A stretch of 64,000 nt of DNA, taken from positions 2,145-66,144 of the forward strand of contig JACDBH010000001.1 of the NCBI GenBank assembly GCA_013694995.1, in the 5' to 3' direction. This document shows, in pieces, positions 2,122-54,364 of the stretch (positions within the stretch are counted from its first letter, which is position 1; each line of letters begins with the position of its first letter). The translations under genes and the position numbers were made by a program. The notes beneath the pieces were generated by a model that saw nothing but the letters and a program-made list of their open reading frames with translations, was not told where the DNA came from and made no database searches. This stretch comes from Candidatus Saccharimonadota bacterium. Its GTDB lineage: Bacteria; Patescibacteriota; Saccharimonadia; Saccharimonadales; JACDBH01.

Positions 2122-3267
2122 CTACATTGAAAGGCTAGGGGCTATTTCTAAGCTGTAAGGGTCGGCGGCGGGTTGGCCGAGCTTCATCTTAAATGCGCCT
2201 AAGGTGGCAATCATGGCGCCGTTATCAGTGCAAAGCTTGGGGTCGGCATATTTTATTTCTATCGGTAATCGTTCAGATAGTTGCTTCCGCAGCTCCGGGC
2301 TGGCGGCAACACCGCCGGCAATGACGACCGAGGCAGGGGAGAACTCTTCATAAGCCTGAATGGCTTTATCGACCACAGTTTCGATTGCAACGCGTTGGAA
2401 AACAGCGGCTATATCGGCTTTCTGAGCTTCAGAGAGGGCCTCAGGCAGGTTTTTGGACGGAAATGTGAAGTCTTGCCCTATTAAGCTTTGGGCTTGCCTG
2501 AGGGCAGCTGTTTTGAGACCAGAAAACGAAAAGTCATATTTGCCGTTCATCTTTGCCTTCGGTAAAGAAAAAGCCACCGGATTACCCTCGAGCGCCTTTA
2601 ATCCCACAGATGGGCCACCGGGGTAGGGGAGCCCAATCATTTTGGCAACTTTATCAAAGGCTTCACCGATAGCATCATCTTGGGTCTGGCCCAGCAATAA
2701 GTAATCAAAATGATCCTTAAACAGGGCAAGTTGGCTGTGTCCACCACTGACAATCAGCGCCAAAGCTGGAAATACCGGCTGGGCCGTCGGAACCGAATAG
2801 CTTGCGGAGGTCTGACCTTCGCAAGAAGGGGAAATAGAGGTGATGAAGTTGGAATAAACGTGAGCTTCCACATGATTAATTGCATATAGCGGCTTACTTT
2901 TGGCGATCGCAAGGGTACGGGCGGTCATGACTCCTACAAGTAGCGAACCCCCCAAGCCTGCCCCATAGGTCACTGCAATCCCATCAATATTAGACCATAA
3001 TTCCTCACTTTCCGAGGTCCGTCCTCGGAAAGTTAAGGGAGAGAGGGAAGTTTTCAGAACTTCGTCGATCACGGGTATAATACTTTCGATATGGCTACGG
3101 GCGGCAATTTCCGGCACAACTCCTCCGTACTGGGCATGCAGGTCCATGCTTGACGCAACTACATTGCCAAGCAAAGTGCAGTTTAATCTGTCGTCTATCT
3201 CGACGACAGCTGCAGCAGTCTCGTCGCAGCTAGTTTCTATACCTAAAACCCGTAGCCGTTTATTCAT
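2122..3267 (-). CDS. tsaD: tRNA N6-adenosine threonylcarbamoyltransferase (Kae1/Gcp family)
   Basis: 381 aa with LGIETSCDETAAAVV N-terminus, VSGGHSQL and LCTDNGAMIA motifs. About 40 aa longer than E. coli/B. subtilis TsaD because of internal insertions. Confidence 0.92.
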   Translation of the reverse strand: MNKRLRVLGIETSCDETAAAVVEIDDRLNCTLLGNVVASSMDLHAQYGGVVPEIAARSHIESIIPVIDEVLKTSLSPLTFRGRTSESEELWSNIDGIAVTYGAGLGGSLLVGVMTARTLAIAKSKPLYAINHVEAHVYSNFITSISPSCEGQTSASYSVPTAQPVFPALALIVSGGHSQLALFKDHFDYLLLGQTQDDAIGEAFDKVAKMIGLPYPGGPSVGLKALEGNPVAFSLPKAKMNGKYDFSFSGLKTAALRQAQSLIGQDFTFPSKNLPEALSEAQKADIAAVFQRVAIETVVDKAIQAYEEFSPASVVIAGGVAASPELRKQLSERLPIEIKYADPKLCTDNGAMIATLGAFKMKLGQPAADPYSLEIAPSLSM

Positions 3268-3289
3268 CCGTTACAGTATACTTTAGTCA

Positions 3290-4591
3290 ATGGGTTTCAG
3301 AACGGTAGTCAAAAAGTTTATACCTAAAAGGCTCTTTCGAAAAATTGAGCCCTACGGCCATCTATTGGAAGCTTTCTTATTTCATACTTTAAGCGGATTT
3401 CCGGCACGTAATTTCAAAATAATCGGTGTGACTGGTACTAATGGCAAAACGACCACCAGTTTTATGATTCACCGCATGCTACATGAGGCTGGCTTCAACG
3501 TAGGTCTTATGAGCACCGTAGCTTACGGAGTTGGGGAGGATATCCGGCCGCAAATTCACCACATGACCAACGTCACCGTACCTGAGCTAGTCCAACGCTT
3601 AAAATGGATGAAACGCCAAAAAATTGACTGGCTGGTTCTGGAAACTACAAGCCATGCATTGGCTCAGAACCGCGTCTGGGGGGTACCGTATTCTATTGCT
3701 GTTATGACCAATGTTACACACGAACACCTCGATCAGCACGGTACCTTCGAACGATACCGCGACGCTAAACGTAAGCTATTTTGGATTACCGATTTCAATA
3801 AAAAAGGTAAACGGGTAGGTATAATCAACGCCGACGACCCCAGTGCCGAGCTATTTATTAGCGATATAAACCGTCCGATCACTTACGGTATAGAGGAAGG
3901 CGATCTCAAGGCCCAGAACGTGAAGCTTACCCCGGGCGGTTCGCGGTATCAGGCGGTATTTAAGGATCGGGAGCTAAGGGTCGAATGCCATATTCCTGGC
4001 AGTTTTAACGTTTATAACTCTTTGGCAGCAGCAGCAGTTGGGGGCGTTATAGGACTTGGCAAAGAGGAAATCGAACGGGGCATTGCCGCGCTCAGGCGTG
4101 TAGAGGGGCGGATGGATCCGGTCGATGAGGGCCAGGATTTCAGCGTTATTGTTGATTTTGCCCATACGCCGGACAGTTTCGAAAAGTTATTTAAAGACCT
4201 GCGTCCTGTAGTTAAATGCAAGTTAATCGTCTTGTTTGGCTCTGCGGGCAGGCGTGATGAGGCCAAGCGCGCGATCCAGGGCAAATTAGCGGGAGAGTAC
4301 GCAGATGAGGTTATTATCACCGAAGAGGACGACCGCGATATCGATGGAGTAGAAATTATGAACATGATTGCCAGTGGGGCTGAGGCAGCAGGGAAGGACA
4401 GAGATAAAAATCTGTTCTTAGTGCACGACCGTACTGAGGCTATCAATTTTGCCATGAGCCGGGCAAAGCGGGGCGACACTGTGCTGCTGCTTGGAAAAGG
4501 GCACGAGAAGACGATTGAACGTGCTGATGGTGAGCATGATTGGGACGAAATTGCCACCGCTCGCGAAGCATTGCAAAAACTCAAAAAATAG
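3290..4591 (+). CDS. Mur ligase family protein, MurE-like (UDP-MurNAc-tripeptide synthetase) with a truncated N-terminal domain
   Basis: 433 aa. P-loop IIGVTGTNGKTTT, central TNVTHEHLDQHGT and C-terminal DFAHTPDSFEKLF...FGSAGRRDEAKR align with MurE. Only ~45 aa precede the P-loop. The DNPR (DAP-specifying) position reads EEDDRD. Confidence 0.65.
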   Translation: MGFRTVVKKFIPKRLFRKIEPYGHLLEAFLFHTLSGFPARNFKIIGVTGTNGKTTTSFMIHRMLHEAGFNVGLMSTVAYGVGEDIRPQIHHMTNVTVPELVQRLKWMKRQKIDWLVLETTSHALAQNRVWGVPYSIAVMTNVTHEHLDQHGTFERYRDAKRKLFWITDFNKKGKRVGIINADDPSAELFISDINRPITYGIEEGDLKAQNVKLTPGGSRYQAVFKDRELRVECHIPGSFNVYNSLAAAAVGGVIGLGKEEIERGIAALRRVEGRMDPVDEGQDFSVIVDFAHTPDSFEKLFKDLRPVVKCKLIVLFGSAGRRDEAKRAIQGKLAGEYADEVIITEEDDRDIDGVEIMNMIASGAEAAGKDRDKNLFLVHDRTEAINFAMSRAKRGDTVLLLGKGHEKTIERADGEHDWDEIATAREALQKLKK

Positions 4592-4609
4592 GACATAATT
4601 AAATTAACT

Positions 4610-4894
4610 ATGGCGGAGCAACCAGTCTTTATAGAGCAGAGGTTTATTGTAAAACTTTATAATGGACTTGCTGATGAACTGAATACAGAGAAAGAGCATC
4701 TCCGAAGGCACAAGGGTGATCGAGATGAAGAGGATTATGGCAGCGACCCATTATTTAACTATGTCCAAGGCAAAGTAATAGGGCTCGGAATAGGTGTTAA
4801 CGCTCTGCGTGCCTTTCTAGAAGCACAGAGCGCTGACAGCCGAGGTCTACTTACCGCAGAAGCGGCTGGTAAAATTCCAAACTCCACAGAATAA
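4610..4894 (+). CDS. hypothetical protein (94 aa)
   Basis: ORF only, 18 nt after the murE-like stop; no recognisable motif. Confidence 0.4.
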   Translation: MAEQPVFIEQRFIVKLYNGLADELNTEKEHLRRHKGDRDEEDYGSDPLFNYVQGKVIGLGIGVNALRAFLEAQSADSRGLLTAEAAGKIPNSTE

Positions 4895-4896
4895 TA

Positions 4897-4925
4897 TTGA
4901 CAAATATAGTAAATATTGCTAGAAT
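4897..4925 (+). promoter_or_regulatory. sigma70-type promoter TTGACA-17-TAGAAT
   Basis: TTGACA 4897-4902, 17-nt spacer, TAGAAT 4920-4925; 42 nt upstream of ATG 4968. Confidence 0.6.
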
Positions 4926-4967
4926 AGTACTGTTAATAACAAATAAAACAAAAAAGGTTCAAGCAAA

Positions 4968-5231
4968 ATGGAAAACAAGCCAGCAGCACAGGTAGACATT
5001 GATGAGCTTCGTGCGCAAGCTACCACACCAGAAGACCATGTCTACCTTAACGCTGAGCAAACTCGCTTAGACGAAGAGCGTAAGGCTACTCTTGGTGGTG
5101 CCACGGTTGACGCAGCCAAATTAATTGAGTTATCTGACGGCTCAATAGCAACCGAACAAGAAGTTGTCGCATCACGTGAACGTGGTGAAGAGCCAAGCGG
5201 TACCTACGGTAACGGTCACGGTCGGGCATAA
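4968..5231 (+). CDS. hypothetical protein (87 aa)
   Basis: ORF preceded by a canonical promoter and followed by a strong hairpin terminator; no recognisable domain. Confidence 0.5.
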   Translation: MENKPAAQVDIDELRAQATTPEDHVYLNAEQTRLDEERKATLGGATVDAAKLIELSDGSIATEQEVVASRERGEEPSGTYGNGHGRA

Positions 5232-5242
5232 ATTTCTACCAA

Positions 5243-5275
5243 TCAAAAGCCGCCCGTTTACTAGGCGGCTTTTGA
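5243..5275. terminator. bidirectional hairpin terminator between convergent genes
   Basis: 12-bp perfect stem TCAAAAGCCGCC / GGCGGCTTTTGA with a 9-nt loop, A/T runs on both flanks. Lies between the 4968-5231 (+) and 5288-6232 (-) stops. Confidence 0.7.
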
Positions 5276-5287
5276 TTTGTTGTAAAT

Positions 5288-6232
5288 CTATAGCTTATTG
5301 GCGGCCATGTAGCCGGTGTACCAGCTGTAATTACTGCCAAAAAACTTGGCAATAAGTTCGATGCCCAGCTCGGCGGTCTTTTTGTTCTCATCTTGCAGCG
5401 GGTTGTACTCTACGACATCGATGCCGACGACATTACACTTCATACCGATATATTCGGCAATGGCGGCAATTTCTCGGTAGGAAAGACCGCCGGGGTTCGG
5501 CATGCCGGCACCGGGCGCGTAGACACGGTCAATAACATCAAGATCCAGGCTGACCCAGGTGTGGCTGACTTTGTTTGCAAGAGCGTCGATCATATCCAGC
5601 AGCGGCCGCATGCCGTCGCAAAGCAGGTCTACGAGTTTGAAGTGGGGCAGTTTCTCGCGTTCCATGAGGTCGATTTCTGGCTGGTCTAGATCGCTGCCAC
5701 CAATGTGCAGCAGATGCTCTTTGGCAATTTTAGCGCCTTCATGATGGACATTAATTAGACGCTCGTCACCAAAGCCAAGCAGAGAGGCAAGGTGCATGCC
5801 GTGTATATTGCCAGTTTGGGTAGTGTCGGCAGTGTTCATGTCACCGTGGGCATCAAGATAAATCAATCCTAAGTCACCGTTAAGGGCAGCCGATGCGCCA
5901 GCAACGACCCCTAGGTTAATAGAGTGGTCGCCGCCAATGGCAATGACGTGTTCCTGACGGCCTATAATTTCATTTGTAAGTTTGGCGGTTTCTTCGGACA
6001 CGCGGACAATTTCTTCAAGGTAGCGGAGACGGTCATCACCTGGTTCAAGCTCGGAGCGGTCGCGGCTCTTGATATCGCCGTAATCTTTAACTTCTAGCCC
6101 CGCGGAGCTTAACTTATCAATTATGCCCTGGTGGCGAAAAGCGTCTGGGCCAATGTCGACGCCAAGGTTCTTTGCCCCCAAGTCCAGAGGAATTCCAATC
6201 AGGGTTGCCGCACTTGTTGGCCATTTTTTCAT
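5288..6232 (-). CDS. rocF: arginase (ureohydrolase family)
   Basis: 314 aa. Mn-binding motifs GGDHSI, YLDAHGDMNT and SLDLDVID..APGAGMPNPGGLSYRE; GNIHGMHLASLLGFG matches Bacillus-type arginases. Confidence 0.8.
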   Translation of the reverse strand: MKKWPTSAATLIGIPLDLGAKNLGVDIGPDAFRHQGIIDKLSSAGLEVKDYGDIKSRDRSELEPGDDRLRYLEEIVRVSEETAKLTNEIIGRQEHVIAIGGDHSINLGVVAGASAALNGDLGLIYLDAHGDMNTADTTQTGNIHGMHLASLLGFGDERLINVHHEGAKIAKEHLLHIGGSDLDQPEIDLMEREKLPHFKLVDLLCDGMRPLLDMIDALANKVSHTWVSLDLDVIDRVYAPGAGMPNPGGLSYREIAAIAEYIGMKCNVVGIDVVEYNPLQDENKKTAELGIELIAKFFGSNYSWYTGYMAANKL

Positions 6233-6358
6233 TCCTTAAATTGTAGCATGAGGTTTAAAAGTTCGGGGGTATAGTAATTGCAAAAAAACTGACATACATG
6301 TAGGGCAAAAGTCATTAGCATTATCAGTTTAGAAAATATCGTCCTAAACATTATCTAG

Positions 6359-6387
6359 TTGCTTTAATATCAAGTATATGCTATGAT
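6359..6387 (+). promoter_or_regulatory. sigma70-type promoter TTGCTT-17-TATGAT
   Basis: TTGCTT 6359-6364, 17-nt spacer, TATGAT 6382-6387. ATG 6397 is only 9 nt past the -10, so the leader is very short or absent. Confidence 0.55.
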
Positions 6388-6396
6388 ATAAGAGTT

Positions 6397-6690
6397 ATGC
6401 CAAAACAAACAACAGAACAACTTGGAAATTACGCATTCTTTCGTCAGCAAGGTGAATTGCCTCCACCCGACGACATGCACGACGGTAGTATTGGCTTCCA
6501 TAACAAAGGTTTGCATGATGAGTCTGATGTCCCACATACAAAAATTGAACATGATCTTACGCAGTATGGTGACGTACATATAGTCGACGAAGCAGCGATT
6601 TTAAGTGGTGGCATCAGGCACAATCGCCGCCGTGCCAACCCAGAAGCTGACGCCGATGCTTGGATGGCAAAGAACGGCCATACCTGGTAA
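6397..6690 (+). CDS. hypothetical protein (97 aa)
   Basis: ORF with its own promoter; no recognisable domain. Confidence 0.5.
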   Translation: MPKQTTEQLGNYAFFRQQGELPPPDDMHDGSIGFHNKGLHDESDVPHTKIEHDLTQYGDVHIVDEAAILSGGIRHNRRRANPEADADAWMAKNGHTW

Positions 6691-6743
6691 TAACAATCGT
6701 TATCACTTTACCATCTGTAAAAAATATGTTAAAGTATTAAATA

Positions 6744-7118
6744 ATGGAGTATCGGCCTTATTTCCTCAGCCTAGAAGAAACCTACTCAGAGCAGCCGTAT
6801 CCTGACATAGGCGGCTTTTTCGGTATTCACTTCGAAACCTTATTTGATGAAAACGAGGATGGGAATGGTGATTTGCAGAACCTTGCTACTGGGAAGCCAT
6901 ATGATAATTCTACCTATGATGGACTGGAGGAACTCGACGATATTGATGACAGCTATCTGGCGGCCTCTTATTATTTTTTGCCGCATGAGGAGAATGATGA
7001 AGCCGATGACTGGCTGGAGCAGGCCGAACTCGAGCGGGACCTAACTCAGTTAAATGGGCAAGGCGAAGACGAATTGCACTATGACCCTAATGAAGAGCAC
7101 ATAAAGACGCCAAGCTAA
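6744..7118 (+). CDS. hypothetical, strongly acidic protein (124 aa)
   Basis: 35 Asp/Glu against 4 Lys/Arg by my count; no recognisable domain. Confidence 0.5.
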   Translation: MEYRPYFLSLEETYSEQPYPDIGGFFGIHFETLFDENEDGNGDLQNLATGKPYDNSTYDGLEELDDIDDSYLAASYYFLPHEENDEADDWLEQAELERDLTQLNGQGEDELHYDPNEEHIKTPS

Positions 7119-7132
7119 TAGACCTCATAGGC

Positions 7133-7162
7133 AAACAATAAAAAACCGCCTTATTTGGCGGG
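7133..7162 (-). terminator. intrinsic terminator (minus strand) after repeat copy 1
   Basis: CCGCC (7146-7150) / GGCGG (7157-7161) stem with a 6-nt loop, followed on the minus strand by TTTTTTATTGTTT. Confidence 0.65.
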
Positions 7163-7183
7163 CCGAACGTAAGTGGGGTAAAT

Positions 7184-7289
7184 GCGGGCTTGGTTTTTAT
7201 AGATATTGGAGTAATGGGGTGGGGGTGTATCGCAAACGCTAAAGCGCCTGCAAACGATTACTACGACAATAACTTTTTAAACCAAGCCC
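7184..7289 (-). repeat. 106-bp structured repeat, copy 1 (candidate 3'UTR sRNA / MITE-like element)
   Basis: Identical at all 106 positions to 7778-7883. 11-bp terminal inverted repeats GGGCTTGGTTT / AAACCAAGCCC. Lies between the stop of ORF 7350-7679 and a minus-strand terminator. Confidence 0.85.
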
Positions 7290-7349
7290 TAGTGCCCAGC
7301 AGGGTAGTGGACGCCATTGTCCATCTATGCCTGCCGGGCCTAAAGGTTC

Positions 7350-7679
7350 CTACTTCTTCATGCTTGCCAGCCAGCCTTGGATGGCGCGACGGATATCGTC
7401 ACCGTATTTTGCCAGGCGTCCTTGTGTACTGCGGCTGTTCGGGTCCATGCCTCCAAAGGAGACATAGAAGCTGGCTGCTTCACCACTCGGCGTGCAGGTG
7501 CACAGGTAAACATTTGATACGTGCTTGCACACTTTTGAAAGTGCCGACCCCAAGTTCTTGGCATCTGACTCACCGATAGGTTGTACGGTGCGAAAGTATT
7601 GCCGCGGACTTGGATTGACTGTCCCCAAGGGGCTCATCACCGTAGTGACGAACGTGATACCCTTTGTCATTGTTTGCAT
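7350..7679 (-). CDS. hypothetical protein (109 aa)
   Basis: ATG 7679 preceded by GGGAG 8 nt upstream and an extended -10; no recognisable domain. Confidence 0.55.
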   Translation of the reverse strand: MQTMTKGITFVTTVMSPLGTVNPSPRQYFRTVQPIGESDAKNLGSALSKVCKHVSNVYLCTCTPSGEAASFYVSFGGMDPNSRSTQGRLAKYGDDIRRAIQGWLASMKK

Positions 7680-7718
7680 TACGCTTACTCCCTTCGATAG
7701 GGTGGTAGGAATGAAACG

Positions 7719-7727
7719 ATTATAGCA
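7719..7727 (-). promoter_or_regulatory. extended -10 promoter element TGcTATAAT (minus strand)
   Basis: Minus-strand TGCTATAAT immediately after the upstream terminator T-run and ~40 nt upstream of ATG 7679. No good -35. Confidence 0.4.
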
Positions 7728-7728
7728 T

Positions 7729-7750
7729 AAAAAAACCGCCTCTACGCGGT
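7729..7750 (-). terminator. intrinsic terminator (minus strand) after repeat copy 2
   Basis: ACCGC / GCGGT stem (7735-7739 / 7746-7750) with a 6-nt loop, followed on the minus strand by a run of 7 T (one in the stem). Confidence 0.55.
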
Positions 7751-7777
7751 ATAGGGGGAGCTCAAAATGGGATGGGG

Positions 7778-7883
7778 GCGGGCTTGGTTTTTATAGATAT
7801 TGGAGTAATGGGGTGGGGGTGTATCGCAAACGCTAAAGCGCCTGCAAACGATTACTACGACAATAACTTTTTAAACCAAGCCC
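7778..7883 (-). repeat. 106-bp structured repeat, copy 2
   Basis: 100% identical to 7184-7289 (offset 594 bp); flanks diverge at both ends. Lies between the stop of ORF 7950-8435 and a minus-strand terminator. Confidence 0.85.
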
Positions 7884-7949
7884 GGAAGCCGGCAGAGCAG
7901 AGAAGACAACGCTGTCTTCAGAACTCTGACCGGTATCCGTTCCTTCTTC

Positions 7950-8435
7950 TCAGCCGAAGCTGTGTGATACGAGGCCGTGTCCGCCCTTGCTGCTGGTCGC
8001 CATCGCGTTCATGAGCTTGCCAACTGGGGCGTTGTGCTCTTCGATCAGCAGGTCGAGTTCGGCATGGCCGAAGTTTTGGGTAGACTCACAAACCATGAGC
8101 ATGAACTTACGGACGACCTCTTTGGCCTGTTCGTCGCTGGTGACTGCATCGCTCATCTCGATGATGAGGAAGTGCTCGCCGCCGTTGATGTCGATGATTT
8201 CCGCGATGCCGCGCCGCTTGCGGAGCAGACCCAGAAGCATTTCTTGTGCATACGGTGAGTTGACCGGCGCATCCGTCCAGAGACGAACTGCGTAGGTTTG
8301 ACCCCCGTAAACCTGTTGTATGTTGAAGGAACCGAGTTTGTTCTCGTACACTTGCACTTCCTTTATAAGGTAGTGGGTGGATTGGATATCCCGATGGGAT
8401 TGCAGAATAATACGCTTAAACTGCTTATTTTTCAA
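7950..8435 (-). CDS. hypothetical protein (161 aa)
   Basis: ORF with a TTG start (first start codon after the upstream in-frame TAG) and no obvious SD. Balanced composition; no recognisable domain. Confidence 0.45.
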   Translation of the reverse strand: MKNKQFKRIILQSHRDIQSTHYLIKEVQVYENKLGSFNIQQVYGGQTYAVRLWTDAPVNSPYAQEMLLGLLRKRRGIAEIIDINGGEHFLIIEMSDAVTSDEQAKEVVRKFMLMVCESTQNFGHAELDLLIEEHNAPVGKLMNAMATSSKGGHGLVSHSFG

Positions 8436-8443
8436 GCATAAAG

Positions 8444-8472: not shown

Positions 8473-8488
8473 ATGTGGTAGATTTAAT

Positions 8489-18075: not shown

Positions 18076-18165
18076 GGAAGGGTCGCATAGTGGCCTAGTG
18101 CGCTGCCTTGGAAAGGCAGTATACCCGCAAGGGTATCGAGGGTTCAAATCCCTCTCCTTCCGCCA
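18076..18165 (+). tRNA. tRNA-Ser (anticodon GGA), CCA encoded
   Basis: Hand-folded cloverleaf. Acceptor GGAAGGG/TCCTTCC; anticodon stem CTGCC/GGCAG with loop TTGGAAA; long variable arm TACCC-GCAA-GGGTA; T arm GAGGG-TTCAAAT-CCCTC; discriminator G plus CCA. Confidence 0.9.
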
Positions 18166-33649: not shown

Positions 33650-34279
33650 TTACGGTACGTTCAAAATGGCAGTTGTACTGCTAAAGCTATCAGAGAGCAA
33701 GTCTTTACTCGTTGGATTGGCCGCAGCATTATAAGCATTTTGGAGGGCTTCAGCGTAGTTGGTGAGCTGTGAGTTGAGTACTTCATTAAATACATCATCG
33801 TAACGGTTATTGCTGGTGGCAGTTTTTAAAGCATCATCGACTTCTGAGTCTTTTTTGCTGGCTAGCTCTTCTTTGGTTAGTACAATTTTATTCTTTTCCA
33901 GGTGGCTTTTTAGGGCAGTTTGCTGGGTCTGGACGCTTAACTTGGCCGTAATCGCAATTGAGCGTGTGTTGCTATCAGCTGCTTTTGCTCCCATATCTGC
34001 AACCCGTATTAGCTCTTGTTGTTGTGCTACTAAAGACTTGAGGTTACCAGCGGCACTTTTGCTGCCGCTGGTAAGGATAGTCGATGCAACGACAAAAAGT
34101 ACCATAAGTAGCACTGCAATTCCGCCGATCAGGAGCAAGCGTGATTTCATTGATCCGCTACCCAATAGTAGAAATGGTTTTTTTGGCGGCTTGGACGGAT
34201 TAGTAATAAAATCATACTGATTATTGCCTGGAGTTGGTTTCGGCTCGTACGACTGGTTATGATTCATAACCATAAGCAT
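33650..34279 (-). CDS. hypothetical single-pass membrane protein (209 aa)
   Basis: Pro-rich N-terminus with QYDFITNP, one TM (LLLIGGIAVLLMVLFVVAS), helical ectodomain. Confidence 0.5.
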   Translation of the reverse strand: MLMVMNHNQSYEPKPTPGNNQYDFITNPSKPPKKPFLLLGSGSMKSRLLLIGGIAVLLMVLFVVASTILTSGSKSAAGNLKSLVAQQQELIRVADMGAKAADSNTRSIAITAKLSVQTQQTALKSHLEKNKIVLTKEELASKKDSEVDDALKTATSNNRYDDVFNEVLNSQLTNYAEALQNAYNAAANPTSKDLLSDSFSSTTAILNVP

Positions 34280-34339
34280 ATCTTATGAGTAGAAAGGTAG
34301 TAAAGTTTATAAAGTAGAAAGTATTCTAAAACAATGGAA

Positions 34340-34904: not shown

Positions 34905-34992
34905 AAACGCTTATACCGTAACCTTAAAATTAGGCTAAGAGCTATGTTCCTAGTGCTTGCTACTTGCTACTTTCTAATTGATACTACCACGC

Positions 34993-46054: not shown

Positions 46055-46066
46055 ATGTATATTATA

Positions 46067-47326: not shown

Positions 47327-48196
47327 ATGCCGGAACTTCCCGAGGTAGAAACAGTCCGCCGTGGTTTGCACGGTTTGATTATTGGTAAGACTATTAAGGC
47401 TGTAAAGCATGACTGGCCAAAAAGCTTCCCAAATGCACTCAATGATGTAGAAGAATTTTTGATTGGTGCCAAAATTAGCGATGTGCGCCGCCGCGCTAAA
47501 GTACTTATGATTGACCTAGATAGTGGATACAGTCTGGTTGTACACCTTAAAATGACCGGGCAATTGGTTTATAGGGGCAAGGAAGTGTTTGGAGCAGGAC
47601 ACCCTAGTGGTAGTCTGGTCGGAAAGTTGCCAGACAAATCTACCAGGGTGAATATAGAGTTTACTGATGGTTCAAACTTATATTTTAACGATCAAAGAAA
47701 ATTTGGTTGGATGCGATTAATGCCAACAATCGAAATCCCCAACATTGATTTCATGAAAAAGGTGGGTCCAGAGCCGCTAGGCGATGAATTTACATCTAAA
47801 ATTTTTATTAGCCGTGTACGCAGACGCGCCAATACTACTATTAAAGCAGCCTTGCTCGACCAAACGGTGTTAGCTGGCATCGGTAATATCTATGCCGATG
47901 AAAGTTTATGGGGTGCCAGAGTTCACCCTGCTACACGTGTGCACGACGTATCTCCAGCTAAATTAAAAGTGTTGTATACAGAACTGCGCTTCGTATTAAA
48001 TCTGGCAATTGAAAAGGGCGGTTCAACCGACCGCAATTATGTTAATGCTGAAGGCAAAAAGGGAAGTTACATAGAATTTGCCCGGGTCTTCCGCCGCGAA
48101 GGCCAACAATGTACACGTTGCGGCAATATTATTATAAAAACCCGCGTTGCCGGCCGTGGCACCCATTCCTGTCCGCATTGTCAGATTTTAAGTTAA
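47327..48196 (+). CDS. mutM: formamidopyrimidine-DNA glycosylase
   Basis: MPELPEVETVRRGL N-terminus, H2TH region, C-terminal zinc finger CTRCGNIIIKTRVAGRGTHSCPHC. Confidence 0.92.
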   Translation: MPELPEVETVRRGLHGLIIGKTIKAVKHDWPKSFPNALNDVEEFLIGAKISDVRRRAKVLMIDLDSGYSLVVHLKMTGQLVYRGKEVFGAGHPSGSLVGKLPDKSTRVNIEFTDGSNLYFNDQRKFGWMRLMPTIEIPNIDFMKKVGPEPLGDEFTSKIFISRVRRRANTTIKAALLDQTVLAGIGNIYADESLWGARVHPATRVHDVSPAKLKVLYTELRFVLNLAIEKGGSTDRNYVNAEGKKGSYIEFARVFRREGQQCTRCGNIIIKTRVAGRGTHSCPHCQILS

Positions 48197-50362
48197 AAAT
48201 TTACTTAGTAGTTTCAATACGCTTGCCGGCGAATCAAGCCGGAATTTAGCCCGGCTTCTGCCCGGCCCGACTTTAATGGTATAGGAGTTAGCGGGCAAAA
48301 CACTGAACATATCTTCGTCAGTATAGTCGTCACCAATGGCTATAATGAAATCAGCATGTTTATCTAGCAGATCCCGGGCAGCCAAGCTCTTTTTGGCATA
48401 TTTAGATTTGATTTCGATGATTTTATGGCCGCCATGGAATTCCAGCTGACTAGTGCGTAGCTTGCCGCGCAGAACTTTTTTGAGTAGCACCAGGTTCTTT
48501 TGGGCGTAGTAGGGTGGCGACATCCGGTAGTGCCAGACCAGTGAATGGTTCTTGTCCTCGATAAATGCTCCAGGAGTTTTAAGAGCATAATCAATTAGTA
48601 GCGGCCTGAGGAGCTTTTTCCAGTTGTCGGCTTCCATCCCGAACTGCTGCCACGTACCTTGATGTTTGCGCATCGCCGCTCCATGCTCAGATACAAGCGA
48701 AATGTCAAGGCTTCCTAGCCAATTGTCGAGATCAGCTTGTTTGCGGCCGCTTATAACTATTACTTCATTTTTTTTGTCCGCTGCAAGATTACCTAGTAAT
48801 TTAAGCAGGGCTTTAGAAGGCCTGGCCTCATCTGGCATGTTAAAGAAGGGCATTAACACTCCGTCGTAATCTAAGAATAATTGCCGTTTTTGCGCCGTTT
48901 GGTAATTTCTAATTAATTCATCCTCTGATTTACCGATGAGCCTCGAGGTATAAGGCTGCATCAAACGGTGGGATTTTTGCAAAGTACCCATAAAGGTGCC
49001 CGCCCAGTCATGAACAGTGTGTTGGGACAAGTATTTCTGCATGGTATCAACGCGGTTTTTTAGCTCCTTGCTCGGCATAATGATAGCTTTATGTAGTGCT
49101 TGGACCATGCTCGGACGCTCCTCAGGGTCGACTAGCAGCGCATGGGTCAACTCTTCGGCAGCACCGGCGGTTTTGCTTAGTATTAAAACACCATTCTTGT
49201 ACTTCTGAGAGGCAAGGTATTCTTTTGCGACCAGGTTCATGCCGTCGCGCAAGGGAGTAATAAAAGCGATGTCGGCTATCTGGTACAAGGCAGTCAACTT
49301 ATCGAAGGACAAGGAACCATAGATATAATCGACAGGCTTCCAAATAAGTGTTCCATATTTCGTGTTGATTTCTTTGACCAACGACTCCAGCTTACTACGC
49401 AGGTCCTGGTAGGCGGCAATATCAGTGCGGGAAGGCACTGCCAGCATGACCAGTACAACCTTACGGTGCAGCTTTGGCTGCGTCTCTAGCAATTGCTTGT
49501 AAGCTTCCAATCGTTCAAGCAGGCCTTTTGTGGGGTCAAGTCGGTCCACAGTTAGTATGACCTTTTTACGGCCGTATTTTTGCCGTAAGATCTTAGCCTC
49601 CAGCCGCACGGTTTTGGTATTTTGGGCAATTGTGTATTTTTCATAATCAATTCCCATCGGAAAATCCGCAACCTGTATTAAGTGGTTGAGGTATGAAACG
49701 CTGCTGCCAGAAATGATGGCAGAGGTAGCAGTCTGGCAAGCATCTAGAAAATGGCGGACGTAGGATTTGGTATGGAAGCCGATTAAGCTTGCCCCAAGCA
49801 GCCCATCTAAAAGTTTTTTACCGTAACGCAGTGACAAAAATGTCTGGGCGTCAGGGAAGGGTATATGTAAAAAAAAGCCGATGGCGTCATAGGGACGTTG
49901 CTGCCTCAGCATTCCCGGCAAAAGCATGAGCTGATAATCGTGTACCCATATAGTACTTCCCGGTTTGCTTAAGGCTATTACTACATCTTTAAAAAGTAGG
50001 TTGACGGTCTCGTACGAGCGCCAGTATTCAGTATAATTAGCCGGTTCGACGGGCAAATTATGGAATAGCGGCCACAAAATGCTATTACTGAACACATTAT
50101 AAAAATCATTAAGCTGTTTGCGCGTTAAAAACACCGGATAGCAGTTTGATTTTTCTAGCTCATCGATTATGTGCTGTTTTTCCTTCTTGGACAAATCCTC
50201 TGAGGCAATACCGGGCCAGCCGATCCACTTATGACCACGTTGTGTGGCGTAAGAGGACAAGCCAGTAGCAAGACCACCGATACTAGGGGAAAATTCAAGA
50301 CCTGTAGGTGTCTTTTTTACGCTAATTGGCAGGCGGTTAGAAACAATAATAATATCAGACAT
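48188..50362 (-). CDS. bifunctional trehalose-6-phosphate synthase / trehalose-6-phosphate phosphatase (OtsA-OtsB fusion)
   Basis: 724 aa with an N-terminal GT20 domain (IIVSNRLPISVKK, WVHDYQLMLLP) and a C-terminal HAD phosphatase (LFLDYDGVLMPF, IAIGDDYTDEDMF). Confidence 0.85.
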   Translation of the reverse strand: MSDIIIVSNRLPISVKKTPTGLEFSPSIGGLATGLSSYATQRGHKWIGWPGIASEDLSKKEKQHIIDELEKSNCYPVFLTRKQLNDFYNVFSNSILWPLFHNLPVEPANYTEYWRSYETVNLLFKDVVIALSKPGSTIWVHDYQLMLLPGMLRQQRPYDAIGFFLHIPFPDAQTFLSLRYGKKLLDGLLGASLIGFHTKSYVRHFLDACQTATSAIISGSSVSYLNHLIQVADFPMGIDYEKYTIAQNTKTVRLEAKILRQKYGRKKVILTVDRLDPTKGLLERLEAYKQLLETQPKLHRKVVLVMLAVPSRTDIAAYQDLRSKLESLVKEINTKYGTLIWKPVDYIYGSLSFDKLTALYQIADIAFITPLRDGMNLVAKEYLASQKYKNGVLILSKTAGAAEELTHALLVDPEERPSMVQALHKAIIMPSKELKNRVDTMQKYLSQHTVHDWAGTFMGTLQKSHRLMQPYTSRLIGKSEDELIRNYQTAQKRQLFLDYDGVLMPFFNMPDEARPSKALLKLLGNLAADKKNEVIVISGRKQADLDNWLGSLDISLVSEHGAAMRKHQGTWQQFGMEADNWKKLLRPLLIDYALKTPGAFIEDKNHSLVWHYRMSPPYYAQKNLVLLKKVLRGKLRTSQLEFHGGHKIIEIKSKYAKKSLAARDLLDKHADFIIAIGDDYTDEDMFSVLPANSYTIKVGPGRSRAKFRLDSPASVLKLLSKFLT

Positions 50363-50501
50363 AGATGTGCTTTAGCAGCGCACGAACCAATTATAGAGTA
50401 ATTTCAGCTTTTATGAATGTATGATGGCTTACATTAGTCTTAATAGACCCATTGCATATCGCCACTCCGTTATGCAATGGGTTCATAGTATGATAACTGA
50501 C

Positions 50502-51416
50502 ATGGTGATTACATTGACCGGGAGCAACGATTTTTTACGTAAAATCGCCCTGCAAAAAATAAAAGCAGATTTTGTTAAAAATCATGGGGATTTCGGGCTG
50601 GAAAATATTCATTCCGGGGAGGTTGAATTAGGACGGTTGCTCGAAAGTGTAGCAAGCCTACCGTTTTTAGCACAGCGCCGGATGATTATTTTAGATGATC
50701 CAAGTAGCAATAAGTTATTGGGCGAAAAAATTGAACAATTTCTGGATGCGATAGCCAATACGACGGATCTAATTATGGTCGAGCGTAAGTTCGATAAGCG
50801 GCTCACGCTATACAAGGTTCTAAAAAAACGTACGGATTACAGGGAATACTTAGACCTAGACGAGCACGGTCTTGCAAGATGGCTGTCTATGGAAGCTACC
50901 CAGCGCGGCGGTGAATTGAACAGTTCCGATGCCCATTATCTGATCCAACGAGCTGGAAGTAACCAAATGGGACTGAGTAATGAGCTTGATAAACTACTTA
51001 GCTACGAGCCGACAATCAGTAAGGGTACCATTGATTTACTCATAGAACCCTTGCCTCAAAGCAGTGTGTTCCATCTTCTTGATGCGGCCTTTGCCGGTAA
51101 CCATAAAAAGGCTTTGGAATTGTATGACGACCAGCGCAATCAACAAGTCGAGCCACAAGCCATTATGGGCATGCTGGCTTGGCAACTGCATGTTATAGCC
51201 GTTGTTAAATTCAATGAAAAAGAAGGCGCGGACATTATTGCCAAAGAGGCCAAACTTAACCCTTATGTTGTGCGTAAAACTCTTAACCTGACGCGCAATT
51301 TGTCTCAAAAAGCCGTTAAGGAACTAGTCAGCAGGGCACTGGCGCTTGATGTTAGTTTAAAAACCGAAAATATTGACGCCGACGACGCTGTCCAGCACTT
51401 TCTGCTTACCATTTAG
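50502..51416 (+). CDS. holA: DNA polymerase III subunit delta
   Basis: MVITLTGSNDFL..., LPFLAQRRMIIL, the C-terminal helical domain pattern of HolA. ATG 50502 (or 50490) is preferred to the ORF-track start at 50421. Confidence 0.8.
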   Translation: MVITLTGSNDFLRKIALQKIKADFVKNHGDFGLENIHSGEVELGRLLESVASLPFLAQRRMIILDDPSSNKLLGEKIEQFLDAIANTTDLIMVERKFDKRLTLYKVLKKRTDYREYLDLDEHGLARWLSMEATQRGGELNSSDAHYLIQRAGSNQMGLSNELDKLLSYEPTISKGTIDLLIEPLPQSSVFHLLDAAFAGNHKKALELYDDQRNQQVEPQAIMGMLAWQLHVIAVVKFNEKEGADIIAKEAKLNPYVVRKTLNLTRNLSQKAVKELVSRALALDVSLKTENIDADDAVQHFLLTI

Positions 51417-51478
51417 AACCAGGCTAGCTAACCTATCGTTAAATTGGCCCGCGGGAATACGACGATAGTCCGGGTAGA

Positions 51479-51823
51479 CTATTTCTTCTTGGTGGTTTTT
51501 TTCTTTGCAGGAGCTTTTTTTGCTACAGACTTTTTGGGTGGTGCTTTTTTGGCGGCTGCTTTCTTAGTACCGGTGTGCTTGACACCAGCTTTTTTGGCGG
51601 CTGCGGCCAGTTGGCGCTTTTTGCGGGCGACTTTGTTCTTGTGAAGCAGGCCTTTTTTGGCAGCTTTGTCTAAAGTGCTTTGGGCTTTGCTGTGGGTAGC
51701 AGAAGAGGCTTTCTTTGAAAAAAGCTTTAAGGCACTACGCAGAGTTTTCTTGGTACGGGCATTGCGGGCAGTAGCCTTGCGGGTCTGCTTAACACGCTTT
51801 TTGGCTGATTTGATAATTGGCAT
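51479..51823 (-). CDS. rpsT: 30S ribosomal protein S20 with Lys/Ala-rich C-terminal extension
   Basis: MPIIKSAKKRVKQTRKATARNARTKKTLRSALK, followed by a ~35-aa AKK/PKK tail. Confidence 0.88.
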   Translation of the reverse strand: MPIIKSAKKRVKQTRKATARNARTKKTLRSALKLFSKKASSATHSKAQSTLDKAAKKGLLHKNKVARKKRQLAAAAKKAGVKHTGTKKAAAKKAPPKKSVAKKAPAKKKTTKKK

Positions 51824-51984
51824 GAATTTTCCTTACTTTATAGTTGTTGATCTTACTAATAGTTAAATATACCGATTCCGCCTCTGTTTGTAAAGAAGGG
51901 TAAGCATTATGTAGAAATATCTTGGACTTTACAAAGTAGTTATGGTAATGTAACAGGGAGTCATAAAAACTAAAAAACTAAAAA

Positions 51985-53580
51985 ATGGATCCCAACCAGA
52001 ACCCAGTCGTAACCAGTCCTAAACAGCAGGTCGCCGAACATGTCCGGCAGGCTGCTAATGTACTAGTTACGGTCCGGTCTAATCCTACAGTAGACGAGCT
52101 TGCAGCAACTATAGGGCTAACCTTGATGCTCAACAAACTGGGCAAGCACGCAACCGCGGTATTCAGCGGTCCAATACCTTCAACCCTGGAATTTCTCAAG
52201 CCCGAAGAAACCCTGGAAACAAATACCAACTCCTTGCGTGATTTCATAGTTTCTTTGGATAAGAGCAAGGCTGACAAACTGCGTTATAAAGTCGAAGAGA
52301 ACGTAGTTAAGATATTTATTACACCCTATAGAACGTCAATAACCCAGGATGATTTGGAATTCAGTCAAGGCGATTTCAATGTCGATGTTGTCATGGCGCT
52401 TGGTGTTACCCAGCGCGAGGAACTAGACCAGGCAATTGTCTCTCATGGCCGGATACTGCATGACGCAACCGTAGTTACTATCACCGCTGGACAACGGGAG
52501 TCGAGTTTGGGCGGCGTCAACTGGCAGGAACCTGCCGCTAGTAGTTTGTGCGAAATGCTGGTCAGTATAAGCGAAGCCTTTCAGGGCGGTCTGATTGATG
52601 CCCAAATTGCAACTGCATTCCTAACCGGTATTGTCGCTGAGACCCAGCGCTTCAGCAATACCAAAACCACTCCGAAAGTTATGACCATGGCGGCACAACT
52701 AATGGCATCCGGCGCTAATCAGCAGCTAATAGCCAATGAACTGCAAAAGGCTGAACCAGACGCGGTTAGTAACCCACTGCCTTTGTTGCCAGTCGAATCT
52801 GTTACTCCGGTTGACTCACAAGACGGAGCTTTATCAATCGAGCATGTCGAGTCAAAGGCCGTGGAAGAAAATCCGGAGCAACCAGAAGAGCTGCCAGCTT
52901 TACCAGAGGCAGGAGTTTCTTTAGAAGAACCCGAACCAGTTGCTGAAACCCCACTTGCTGCCGAACAGCCATCGTTTGGTTCGATTTTACCGCCTCCGCC
53001 TGTTTTAGACGTACCCGAGCCTAATAATTCAGATCAAATACACATTGATCCAGACGGCAATATAATGCCCTCCAACCAGTCAATGGCAACCCGTCACAAG
53101 GTCATTGAACCTTTAGAGCAAGCAGCAGCGCCGATATTGCCTGACTCGGGAGCGACTGTCACGTCGGCTCCATTCTCAGCTTTTGATACAGGCAACTCAC
53201 CGAGTACACCCGTAGAATCGCCTGCAGTTAATTCGGAACCGGCGGCCATGCTACCGACTGTCGCCGAGCCTACTGATACACCTGAACCGCAAGGTCCTAA
53301 TACATTGCTTGATATAGAAAAATCAGTCCATAGCCCCCATGTAGAGCAGGTAGCTGCGTCTGATGGTGGAGTTGATATGGCCCGGAGTGCGGTCATGGAT
53401 GCTATAACCCAGGCACCGTATGATCCGACCAGGCCTGATCCACGTGCTGATATCAATGCTCAGCCTATGGGTATGCCACCTGATCCCTTAGCGCAGCTTA
53501 CGCAGTCCGCACCCCCGCAGCAGGTCAGTGATGACTTATCGGCACCACCACCCGTGCCACCACCACTGATGCCCCAGTAG
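51985..53580 (+). CDS. DHH-family-like protein with degenerate catalytic motifs and a long Pro-rich C-terminal region
   Basis: The N-terminal ~250 aa follow the NrnA/DHH layout, but the DxD and DHH positions are substituted (RSNPTVDELAAT; ETQRFSN instead of DTGxF). The C-terminal ~280 aa are low-complexity Pro/Ala/Ser/Glu. Confidence 0.45.
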   Translation: MDPNQNPVVTSPKQQVAEHVRQAANVLVTVRSNPTVDELAATIGLTLMLNKLGKHATAVFSGPIPSTLEFLKPEETLETNTNSLRDFIVSLDKSKADKLRYKVEENVVKIFITPYRTSITQDDLEFSQGDFNVDVVMALGVTQREELDQAIVSHGRILHDATVVTITAGQRESSLGGVNWQEPAASSLCEMLVSISEAFQGGLIDAQIATAFLTGIVAETQRFSNTKTTPKVMTMAAQLMASGANQQLIANELQKAEPDAVSNPLPLLPVESVTPVDSQDGALSIEHVESKAVEENPEQPEELPALPEAGVSLEEPEPVAETPLAAEQPSFGSILPPPPVLDVPEPNNSDQIHIDPDGNIMPSNQSMATRHKVIEPLEQAAAPILPDSGATVTSAPFSAFDTGNSPSTPVESPAVNSEPAAMLPTVAEPTDTPEPQGPNTLLDIEKSVHSPHVEQVAASDGGVDMARSAVMDAITQAPYDPTRPDPRADINAQPMGMPPDPLAQLTQSAPPQQVSDDLSAPPPVPPPLMPQ

Positions 53581-53617
53581 TAGCCAACTTATCTCATCTT
53601 CTATATACTCCTGACCG

Positions 53618-54364
53618 ATGGATGGCATTCTACTTATTGATAAACCCGAGGGCTGGACGTCTTTTGACGTGGTGGCCAAAGTTCGCGGCCTGCTTCGGCA
53701 GGCCGCCAGTGAAAAGTTGAAAGTTGAAAGTGAAAAGTATGAAGCACCTTTTAACTTTAAGAACTTGCAACTTTCTACTCGCGCACCAAAGGTGCGCGTG
53801 GGGCATACGGGAACCTTAGATCCGCTTGCAACAGGGTTACTTGTGATTGTTGTAGGCAGTTATTGCAAGCGCGCACAGGAATTCTCTAAGTTGGACAAGG
53901 TTTATGAAGTTACTATGAAACTCGGGCAAACTAGCACAACCGGAGACGAGGAAGGTGTGAAGACAATAACTAGTAACCAGGAACCAGAAACTAGGGAAAT
54001 CGAGGCAGCTTTAGAGAAATTCAGTGGCGAAATCATGCAAACACCACCCATTTACAGCGCCATTAAGGTTAACGGCCAGCGGGCTTATAAACTCGCTCGA
54101 GAGGGGAAAGAAGTCAAGCTCGAACCTCGGAAAGTAACTATTTATAATATTCAGCTGACAGATTACAGTTATTCAGAAGTAAAATTCACTGCCAAGGTTA
54201 GTAGCGGAACGTACATTCGATCATTGGTAGAAGATATAGGCAAAGAACTCGGCACTGGAGCATATATGAGCGGTCTGTGTCGAACAGAGGTAGGTGTCTT
54301 TTCTATAAAAAATGCTAACCCGGTGCAGGGAGTAGACATCACGAGGCATGTATTTGACATATAA
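53618..54364 (+). CDS. truB: tRNA pseudouridine(55) synthase
   Basis: GILLIDKPEGWTSFDVV and RVGHTGTLDPLATGLLVIVVG (catalytic Asp), separated by a ~29-aa insertion absent from E. coli/B. subtilis TruB. Confidence 0.9.
   Translation: MDGILLIDKPEGWTSFDVVAKVRGLLRQAASEKLKVESEKYEAPFNFKNLQLSTRAPKVRVGHTGTLDPLATGLLVIVVGSYCKRAQEFSKLDKVYEVTMKLGQTSTTGDEEGVKTITSNQEPETREIEAALEKFSGEIMQTPPIYSAIKVNGQRAYKLAREGKEVKLEPRKVTIYNIQLTDYSYSEVKFTAKVSSGTYIRSLVEDIGKELGTGAYMSGLCRTEVGVFSIKNANPVQGVDITRHVFDI

Follow-up and report, generated by a model that had tools for sequence, protein, structure and literature searches.

We analysed 64,000 nucleotides of contig JACDBH010000001.1 (assembly GCA_013694995.1, positions 2,145 to 66,144) from a Candidatus Saccharimonadota bacterium, hereafter the window, in which three genes for core enzymes (tsaD, mutM, and truB) carry extra coding segments whose DNA can fold into hairpins. 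About 92% of the 64-kb window is coding, its G+C content is 42-50%, and a species-level genome collection gives only metagenome-assembled genomes of Saccharibacteria/Saccharimonadales as its nearest relatives, with a best TruB identity of 70%. The original prediction held that four inserts, two in tsaD and one each in mutM and truB, are lineage-specific and that each is encoded by a strong inverted repeat. The inverted repeats are present at all four places, and each place has extra residues relative to solved structures. Lineage specificity stands for the two tsaD inserts and for truB and falls for mutM, whose segment occurs in 20 of 20 orthologs; likewise, the repeats are strong in tsaD (z -3.66 and -4.33) and truB (z -7.51) and marginal in mutM (z -2.1). 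For hairpins of the window, z compares the single-stranded DNA fold with 200 dinucleotide shuffles. The genes and hairpins in question are as follows.

2122-3267, minus strand: tsaD, encoding the tRNA t6A transferase subunit, host of two hairpin inserts (Pfam TsaD, E=1e-73)
3003-3038, minus strand: tsaD insert 1 hairpin, extended form (core stem 3007-3033)
2801-2825, minus strand: tsaD insert 2 hairpin, CTTGCGAAGG TCAGA CCTCCGCAAG, 9/10 pairs
47327-48196, plus strand: mutM (Pfam, PDB alignment)
47600-47650, plus strand: imperfect mutM hairpin inside the segment GHPSGSLVGKLPDKSTRV, z -2.10
53618-54364, plus strand: truB, encoding tRNA pseudouridine-55 synthase, host gene of the truB module (Pfam TruB_N and TruB_C_2)
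53685-53706, plus strand: truB hairpin H1, GCGGCCTGC TTCG GCAGGCCGC, 9 bp with a TTCG loop, z -4.8
~53709-53779, plus strand: truB hairpin H2, z -3.39, encoding SEKLKVESEKYEAPFNFKNLQLST
53780-53798, plus strand: truB hairpin H3, CGCGCACC AAA GGTGCGCG, 8 bp, z -4.28

Identical TsaD and TruB proteins were recovered from NCBI (TsaD) and, by homolog search, from independent Logan assemblies, which speaks against an assembly artefact.

In Saccharibacteria, DNA able to form hairpins is strongly enriched among the lineage-specific inserts of ordered core proteins. The collection behind this statement comprises 118 Saccharibacteria sequences (1.33 Mb): the window, 26 truB loci, 80 tsaD loci, and 11 loci added later, with 64 kb of DNA for the window's genome and at most 21 kb for each relative. 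The insert test used the window and the first 106 loci, and open reading frames (ORFs) were clustered into 23 ortholog families. Inserts were defined from alignments alone, as internal runs of columns with an occupancy of at most 0.25 and a length of at least 6 aa; each was folded together with 12 nt of flank at both ends, and the fold was scored against 200 codon shuffles. Controls were four same-length segments per insert, drawn from conserved parts of the same gene. Sliding minimum free energy on its own was discarded because it mixed hairpins with generic GC-rich structure; it was replaced by codon-shuffle z-scores and counts of perfect stems.

A z below -2 was found for 16 of 44 inserts (36%) against 6 of 176 controls (3.4%; Fisher p=1.6e-8, Mann-Whitney p=1.4e-5), and a z below -3 for 23% against 1.1%. 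The predicted excess of self-complementarity is thus borne out, and the worry that four cases found by eye reflected ascertainment bias is largely removed, given that an alignment-defined test with matched controls reproduces the association. The inserts that this blind procedure assigned to the window alone are the two in tsaD and the one in truB, and all three are hairpins (z -3.6, -3.4, and -4.6). Counted by site, 10 of 24 insertion sites hold a hairpin insert; counted by gene, structured inserts make up 11 of 15 in TsaD (at least 4 sites), 4 of 4 in TruB (two sites), 1 of 2 in MutM, and 1 of 3 in MurE. With fixed 48-nt windows, z falls below -3 in 10.9% of those in inserts, 1.4% of the conserved ones, and 4.5% of the most variable non-insert ones, and conservation and z are uncorrelated overall. 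A simple count of perfect stems in the coding sequence of the window (at least 10 bp, loops of 3-12 nt) gives 6, nested into 3 distinct hairpins, against 0.6 from synonymous shuffles; tsaD insert 1 is one of the three.

A further 57 inserts lie in a disordered Pro/Glu-rich tail and were analysed separately, with a mean z of 0.01. The window member of that family (51985-53580) is a 531-aa protein with no Pfam match and a hypervariable Pro/Glu/Ala-rich C-terminal half with many indels; as these indels show no hairpin excess, the protein serves as an internal negative control. In the PDB alignments of TsaD and TruB, insert sites coincide with gaps between aligned blocks or secondary-structure elements. 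Every insert seen is in frame and free of stop codons, including those of 41-59 codons and those of 120 TruB and 120 TsaD homologs.

In TsaD, the Pfam match spans 323 residues over 262 profile positions, and alignment with solved structures places extra residues at aa ~71-90, ~145-160, and ~263-282; the two hairpin inserts amount to ~12 and ~15 extra residues at their positions. In insert 1, positions 3007-3033 form a perfect stem of 11 bp closed by a 5-nt loop (arms ACTTTCCGAGG/CCTCGGAAAGT), and the hairpin encodes PLTFRGRTSESE; the alignment-defined insert is aa 74-86, or 3010-3048. None of 200 shuffles folds as well, and its codon-shuffle z is -3.6. The hairpin of insert 2 encodes SCEGQTSAS, its alignment-defined insert being aa 147-153 (2809-2829), with ~5 extra codons relative to locus L081 (L numbers denote loci and P numbers protein homologs); here too, 0 of 200 shuffles are as good. 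Both inserts are unique to the window's genome, being absent from 69 other tsaD sequences from metagenome loci and from the 27 closest aligned database homologs. The two hairpins match each other at 18 of 25 bases (10 of 15 independent positions), a likeness for which our own binomial estimate is roughly p=1e-3. The third segment with extra residues, the old clade-wide insert at aa 263-282, is unstructured at the DNA level. In the tsaD of L099 and L110, the hairpin TTTGATCC-TTG-GGATCAAA pairs the 3' end of the insert with conserved flanking codons. A candidate ancestral hairpin arm at tsaD site 1, in homolog P0137 (GSISES, resembling TSESEE), was set aside, there being no nucleotide similarity.

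Several other features of tsaD were seen. An 8-bp perfect hairpin (CTGTCGTC/GACGACAG) at 3188-3209, in a non-insert part of the gene (aa ~20-25), is locally as strong as insert 1 (local z -4.1). A third insertion hot spot follows LPKA(K/Q)M, where inserts of 40-55 aa starting ISPAL..LR are partly conserved across lineages (homologs P0149, P0153, P0154, P0189, and P0233, alignment A4 columns ~340-395; loci L098 and L118); the only two with DNA, L098 and L118, are strongly structured (z -3.7 each). At site 2, the conserved peptide S-T-N-Y-Q-L-P-T is encoded by (CAACTAC)3 in three lineages (L081 10389-10417; L169 757-785; L171 774-810), where an old heptamer array may have been fixed as part of TsaD. 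At the same site in L099 (2240-2385), the two ends of a 45-aa insert are near-perfect terminal inverted repeats of 17 nt that enclose ~100 nt of unrelated sequence, an architecture that resembles a MITE (miniature inverted-repeat transposable element), unlike the whole-length hairpins.

The truB module is a run of three hairpins. The PDB alignment of TruB is split by ~30 extra residues between aa 26 and 59. H1 lies at the 5' edge of this insert and encodes RGLLRQAA, and its stem is the fourth strongest perfect hairpin in the coding sequence of the window. The 5' arm of H2 (z -3.4) is made of the tandem heptamers GTGAAAA GTTGAAA GTTGAAA GTGAAAA and its 3' arm is their inverted complement; Tandem Repeats Finder (TRF) reports a period of 7 with 3.4-4.4 copies at 53708-53738, and the lag-7 autocorrelation is 0.53. 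In H3 (z -4.3), the conserved K-V-R-V codons form the pairing partner of the insert's 3' end. The whole 126-nt module folds with a z of -7.5.

This insert is found in 3 of 27 species representatives but in ~60% of the 120 closest homologs, at one site; it is shared by a subclade, is hypervariable, and ranges from 15 to 60 aa in length, with peptide motifs conserved within the subclade. All 11 insert-bearing truB genes for which DNA is at hand fold as a long hairpin at the same place (codon-shuffle z from -0.5 to -4.9), with arm sequences that vary by lineage (AAAGTTG, TAGGAAA, and GAGTACA types), and most of the insert-bearing relatives add a small hairpin on the 5' side and the hairpin CACC-AAA-GGTG on the 3' side. 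In the seven sequences that can be aligned, amino-acid identity is 52% in the insert versus 66% in the rest of the protein, and identical residues share the identical codon in 65% of cases in the insert versus 38% elsewhere. After matching for amino acid, same-codon use in the insert stands at 207 observed versus 125 expected; the excess is confined to the hairpin columns and is gone immediately downstream. Pairing on the consensus structure holds for 92% of cells, and sliding the partner lowers this to 26-52%. Covariation scores 0.14 versus 0.08, and 0 of 500 shuffles get as high as the observed value. Four H3 pairs carry changes on both sides, representing few independent events among the seven sequences. 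A.C mismatches on the sense strand are at least as common as G.U in this alignment. The synonymous suppression and compensatory changes indicate a nucleotide-level constraint on the module. Since it is kept at one site throughout a large subclade, with sequence and pairing constrained, the module is more than tolerated and would have a role at the DNA or RNA level, either acquired or original. An Rfam scan of the window gave a single match at gathering score, the tRNA at 18076-18162, and none for the hairpin modules.

The truB insert also appears to be accommodated by the protein. In the AlphaFold model of TruB (mean predicted local distance difference test, pLDDT, 90.8), the 5' arm of the insert is predicted to extend helix alpha-1 to residue 40, and residues 41-60 to form a loop (pLDDT ~71-74) leading back to the catalytic GHTGTLD strand. 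The 5' half of the insert has a pLDDT of ~86-91; for the insert as a whole the range is 71-86 versus 90-98 for the core.

A second array lies further along the gene.

53964-53995, plus strand: second truB heptamer array, TAACTAG TAACCAG GAACCAG AAACTAG, in the variable loop ITSNQEPETRE, with no length change

In this array, CAG replaces TAG at in-frame positions. The relative L013 has a hairpin insert (z -3.5) at this loop of truB. Three ideas about the module were dropped. A derivation of the AAAGTTG heptad from the ancestral K-V-G codons beside the site was abandoned, a 7-mer match not being distinctive; an array in the truB of an Acidobacteria locus (L073), entertained as a case at the same site, proved to lie in a different loop; and a T-arm mimic for TruB autoregulation was rejected because H1 loops are not conserved (UUCG, UUAG, UUA, UAC, CAG, and others).

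Of the four cases, the mutM segment is the least convincing. The PDB alignment shows it as 12 aa inserted with respect to the MutM of Geobacillus, and the sequence AGHPSGSLVGKLPDKSTRV is conserved in all 20 Saccharibacteria orthologs; hence it is an old clade-wide insert rather than a lineage-specific one. The hairpin is matched by 7 of 200 shuffles and is still the most structured 60-nt stretch of the gene. No fold is seen in the DNA of the orthologs (21 sequences, window included, with a mean z of -0.18; 3 of 21 below -2), and the window hairpin is probably due to chance or driven by codons.

The form of the hairpins gives the main mechanistic clue, a heptanucleotide architecture that is missing from the original prediction. 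The larger modules consist of 3-5 tandem heptanucleotide units, a spacer, and then the inverted complement. Lag-7 autocorrelation is 0.43-0.58 in 10 of 11 truB inserts versus 0.25 in controls, and reaches 0.47 in the tsaD insert of L110 and 0.66 in the L001 mutM insert (CAGCTGA units). The 1.33 Mb contain 51 arrays at lag 7, whereas lags 4-6, 8, 10, and 11 yield 0-8; the codon-multiple lags 9 and 12 give 27 and 16 periodic segments. Outside ORFs lie 23 of the 51 arrays (45%), versus 11% of DNA that is non-coding, a ~4-fold enrichment, and AAAGT is the commonest 5-mer core among all arrays. As to pairing, the sense strand is the more stable in 7 of 16 hairpin inserts, and G:U pairs are rare on both strands; with Watson-Crick stems and neither a G:U excess nor a strand bias, the palindromy looks to be a property of DNA rather than of a long-refined mRNA helix.

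The intergenic DNA of the window contains two segments of this kind.

34949-34985, plus strand: intergenic heptamer array CTTGCTA x4.3 (TRF, period 7, 34956-34985), directly upstream of the dnaG start
34290-34326, plus strand: intergenic AAAGT-periodic segment TAGAAAG GTAGTAAAG TTTATAAAG TAGAAAGT, near gene 34416

The reverse complement of the first, TAGCAAG/TAGAAAG, resembles the truB hairpin heptads, and the second lies just upstream of a strong promoter-like TTGACA-17-TATACAAT of gene 34416. An intergenic hairpin with heptamer arms occurs in L165 at 6029-6110, (AGGGTNN)4/(NNACCCT)4. Direct arrays abut ribosome-binding sites or starts at L165 12556-12595, L168 7959-7997, and L011 522-563, with units TAGAAAC x5, AATCTGT-type, and TAGAAGA x3, in that order; a TAG repeated every 7 nt closes each of the three reading frames with a stop. 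AATCNNT units are similar to the WATCACW heptads bound by the omega repressor. The array at L165 12556 stands ahead of RNase J, and those at L168 7959 and L013 3450 ahead of truB; the latter (L013 3450-3481) has four TAACTGA-type heptamers immediately upstream of the truB start and extends the odd phylogenetic distribution of that heptamer to Saccharibacteria. Hairpins of inverted heptamer arrays near or inside truB are also present in loci of Oscillospiraceae and Acidobacteria (Pyrinomonadaceae), at L027 4251-4380, L048 5281-5378, 9841-9949, and 10902-11002, L071 8887-8997, and L073 (20 kb with six arrays); repeats of this class thus extend beyond the Candidate Phyla Radiation (CPR).

Some sequence is shared between genes and spacers. 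Positions 34301-34321, within the AAAGT-periodic segment, are identical over 21 nt to the truB insert of L013 (blastn, E=3e-5). The tsaD site-1 inserts of L169 and L170 are (AAAGTCG)n and align to truB arrays, including the trailing TAT(T/C)CGG; the identity between the L169 tsaD and L163 truB arrays, estimated by eye, is ~80%. Arrays of AAAGT heptads are common to tsaD, truB, and intergenic DNA. Compared as sequences, these cases give hints of families shared between genes.

We consider it somewhat probable that the inserts are short self-complementary repeat DNA that was inserted or expanded in frame and is tolerated in permissive surface loops, where such DNA can persist because of its location. 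Heptamer units would slip during replication, strand switching would add the inverted duplication, and/or small palindromic repeats would spread; the process, itself poorly understood, would be the one by which heptamer arrays and palindromic elements of the Rickettsia type become dispersed. Selection would then purge copies that break the frame, add a stop codon, or hit constrained parts of a protein, acting as a filter on reading frame, stop codons, the hydrophilic character of the peptide, and the permissiveness of the site. Heptamers rich in A, for example AAAGTYG, would read as Lys/Glu/Ser/Val in all three phases and their complement as Leu/Ser/Thr/Phe/Asn, which would give the observed peptides KLKVESEK...FNFxxLQLST. 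In truB, selection would additionally maintain the structure. Two of the three origins offered by the original prediction, template switching and in-frame miniature palindromic elements, are compatible with this account: Watson-Crick stems, heptamer arms, and intergenic enrichment speak for them, but shared families are no more than hinted at. The third, hairpins selected in mRNA, is not needed to explain how inserts arise, though something like it has support for the maintenance of the truB module.

Several observations weigh against inserted repeat DNA as the explanation. Blastn among the hairpin inserts revealed no families, only the one 21-nt match and a few of 16-18 nt, and no multi-copy family was detected in the 64 kb of the window or the at most 21 kb sampled per relative. 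The tsaD hairpin motif has only two copies in the 64-kb window and none in 168 loci or in IMG/VR. Neither of the two window tsaD hairpins is built of heptamers, and the long tsaD inserts of L091, L098, L118, and L142 are unique sequences with no 7-nt period. No relative is near enough to reveal an insertion as it happened, the duplication of a target site, or the arm in its ancestral state, because the closest relatives in the searched collections reach only ~76-79% protein identity at best. The control from other phyla (54 loci) gave 0 of 10 inserts with z below -2, too small a number to speak to lineage specificity. Finally, given the nucleotide-level constraint on truB, the association could owe more to function than to the way in which the inserts arose by mutation.

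That last point leads to the best-placed alternative, which we nevertheless hold to be unlikely: the hairpins are selected nucleic-acid structures, that is, functional cis-elements for mRNA processing, stability, or pausing, or sites bound by a protein that recognises NAG-N4 heptads, with the peptide as a by-product. Such elements would sit inside ORFs because there is almost no intergenic space, and coding density in these genomes is indeed 89-92%. The truB module speaks for it on three counts, namely the recurrence of H1-H2-H3 at one site in ~60% of the 120 closest homologs, the retention of a hairpin in 11 of 11 examples despite differing arm sequences, and the conservation of synonymous sites over the hairpins alone together with compensatory changes; so do the heptamer arrays upstream of starts, which recall TAACTGA repeats with a proposed translational role (PMC4679880). 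Against it, most tsaD hairpin inserts are confined to a single lineage with no conserved sequence or position within the loop, and the old clade-wide inserts (mutM; tsaD aa 263-282) are unstructured. The stems of the hairpin inserts, with no preference for the sense strand, rare G:U pairs, and A.C mismatches on the sense strand at least as common as G.U, are atypical of a long-selected mRNA helix, and no Rfam family matches.

A more specific version of selected structure, which we regard as doubtful and somewhat less likely again, is that the three-hairpin truB module (~125 nt) and, by extension, other in-ORF hairpins of Saccharibacteria are functional cis-regulatory elements housed in coding sequence. 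On this version, the module, whose long stem is built from NAG-N4 heptads plus complement, could serve the truB-rpsO-pnp transcript as a signal for processing or stability; alternatively, by analogy with HutP and TRAP, it could be the target of an oligomeric protein that reads triplets spaced 7 nt apart.

Slightly lower still we place local quasi-palindrome template switching, in which each hairpin is copied from an adjacent complementary strand, belongs to no repeat family, and remains as a decaying birthmark. A palindrome outside the inserts bears on it.

34044-34074, minus strand (gene 33650-34279): strongest perfect hairpin in the coding sequence of the window, 12-bp stem, 7-nt loop, z -6.4

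This hairpin encodes TSGSKSAAG, part of the hypervariable linker that follows the transmembrane helix in a hypothetical membrane protein; 13 homologs are equal in length at the linker, so the palindrome arose without an indel, as multi-base templated correction predicts. The strand-symmetric Watson-Crick stems fit the same process, as do truB H3 and the L099/L110 tsaD hairpin, in which the 3' end of the insert pairs with conserved flank, and the facts that old inserts have no hairpins and most inserts are unique. What template switching leaves unexplained is the 7-nt periodicity of the arms, the likeness of tsaD and truB arrays across genomes, the identical intergenic 21-mer, and the persistence and nucleotide conservation of the truB module; moreover, the nearest relatives show no identifiable ancestral arm.

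Very improbable is the idea that the inserts never reach the protein, being removed from the mRNA or bypassed by the ribosome. Elsewhere, the hairpin 'byp' elements of yeast mitochondria and the coding gap of T4 gene 60 are segments that are bypassed or removed, and compact hairpins inside the ORFs of essential genes invite the comparison. The inserts are in frame and stop-free even at lengths of 41-59 codons, which favors translation over bypass or excision, and in truB the kept peptide motifs and the predicted helix extension (pLDDT ~86-91) point the same way. Equally improbable is chance combined with ascertainment. In its favor are the borderline mutM hairpin (z -2.1), whose segment is not confined to one lineage, the ~6% of ordinary coding stretches of 48 nt with z below -2, and the strong hairpins outside inserts at 3188-3209, 34044-34074, and 50447-50482. 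This explanation is effectively refuted by the blind test, the 48-nt windows, and the truB set, with hairpins in 3 of 3 window inserts and 11 of 11 truB inserts; the z of -7.5 for the truB module also speaks against it.

Hairpin-coding inserts of Saccharibacteria or the CPR were not described in the literature that we searched. The original prediction, in stating that no nucleotide-level explanation was known for insert-rich core proteins, overlooked several precedents (PMC1779305, PMC6649704, PMC4679880, and PMC4692102). Rickettsia palindromic elements (RPEs) lie in spacers and in frame within ORFs, including those of housekeeping enzymes, where the extra peptide is tolerated; they measure 100-150 bp and form recognisable multi-copy families, RPE-1 to RPE-8 (PMC1779305; Claverie and Ogata 2003, cited therein). 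Like RPEs and related Wolbachia coding repeats, the Saccharibacteria modules are self-complementary DNA placed in frame in genes with the ORF preserved, occupy the protein surface away from the catalytic core, and belong to hosts with a reduced genome and a host-dependent lifestyle. Unlike RPEs, they are 25-200 nt long and mostly unique, many are made of tandem heptamers, and the truB module combines persistence at one site with synonymous-site constraint.

Heptanucleotide repeats are the second point of comparison. Two papers describe heptamers as the most abundant long simple-sequence repeats (LSSRs) in many prokaryotes, ascribe them to polymerase slippage, and place them mostly in intergenic DNA, often before starts, and occasionally as inverted pairs or inside ORFs (PMC4679880; PMC4692102). 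In the first of these, TAACTGA is abundant just before starts in Beggiatoaceae, Cyanobacteria, and Bacteroidetes, with a proposed role in translational regulation (PMC4679880). As in the known heptanucleotide LSSRs (cyanobacterial STRR, TAACTGA, and Xanthomonas GGGAATC), period 7 dominates here and arrays are mainly intergenic or before starts; the period is found in truB inserts, some tsaD inserts, and some mutM inserts, but not in the two window tsaD hairpins. Published arrays are mainly direct and lie in non-coding DNA or at the ORF ends of poorly conserved proteins, whereas those described here form direct-plus-inverted hairpins in frame inside universal enzymes and, in truB, are conserved in a clade.

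Other systems are more distant. In Nematomorpha mitochondria, long inverted repeats lie inside translated, functional coding genes, where structure is kept along with coding (PMC6649704); there the repeats are perfect, up to 284 bp, and their arms encode conserved protein regions, whereas here the arms encode hypervariable lineage-specific loops. In Coxiella burnetii, MITEs within ORFs feed the evolution of proteins and small RNAs (PMC5896051). MITEs have terminal inverted repeats, target-site duplications, and many copies, whereas our modules are mostly whole-length hairpins with no repeated copies found, and only the L099 tsaD site 2 has MITE-like ends (17-nt terminal inverted repeats around a core of ~100 nt). 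Quasi-palindrome template-switch mutagenesis (the Ripley model) is known mostly from laboratory mutation spectra. The Saccharibacteria hairpins resemble its products in being Watson-Crick and strand-symmetric, in concerted multi-base changes, and in arms that pair with pre-existing flank (truB H3, 34044-34074); they depart from its predictions in their 7-nt periodicity and in sequences shared between genes.

Insert-rich core proteins are a recognised oddity of the CPR that has had no mechanistic account, and a measurable share of such inserts can now be described as in-frame hairpin repeats. The findings tie the expansion of proteins within one large lineage, still uncultivated for the most part, to the biology of heptamer repeats, which lacks an explanation so far, and to the paradigm of Rickettsia palindromic elements, in which palindromic repeats create new peptide segments. 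In alignments of phylogenetic marker genes, young inserts can be recognised by self-complementary DNA and a 7-nt period, and with the truB module there is a concrete candidate for an ORF-embedded structured element. Were the hairpins functional elements, ultra-compact CPR genomes would encode regulation within the loops of their proteins. Saccharibacteria are now genetically manipulable.

Other structured or repeat-associated features were noted in the window and its relatives. The most stable 44-nt windows in ORFs are at 62812-62861 (-24.7 kcal/mol), at the start of gene 62809-63630, and at 7295-7338 (-24.0 kcal/mol), inside gene 7190-7579; neither gene has a Pfam match. In L164, two genes for 23S rRNA intervening-sequence proteins (PF05635; 735-1094 and 3405-3773) flank a trehalose-phosphate synthase gene, and such genes are absent from the region of the window that is syntenic with L164. 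A 12-bp perfect hairpin (15 bp at 93%; z -5.8) lies at 50447-50482. Because holA orthologs are ~304 aa long and the ORF is 331 aa, the true start of holA is probably near 50493, which, judging from this comparison, would place the hairpin in the holA 5' leader, ~10 nt before the start codon.

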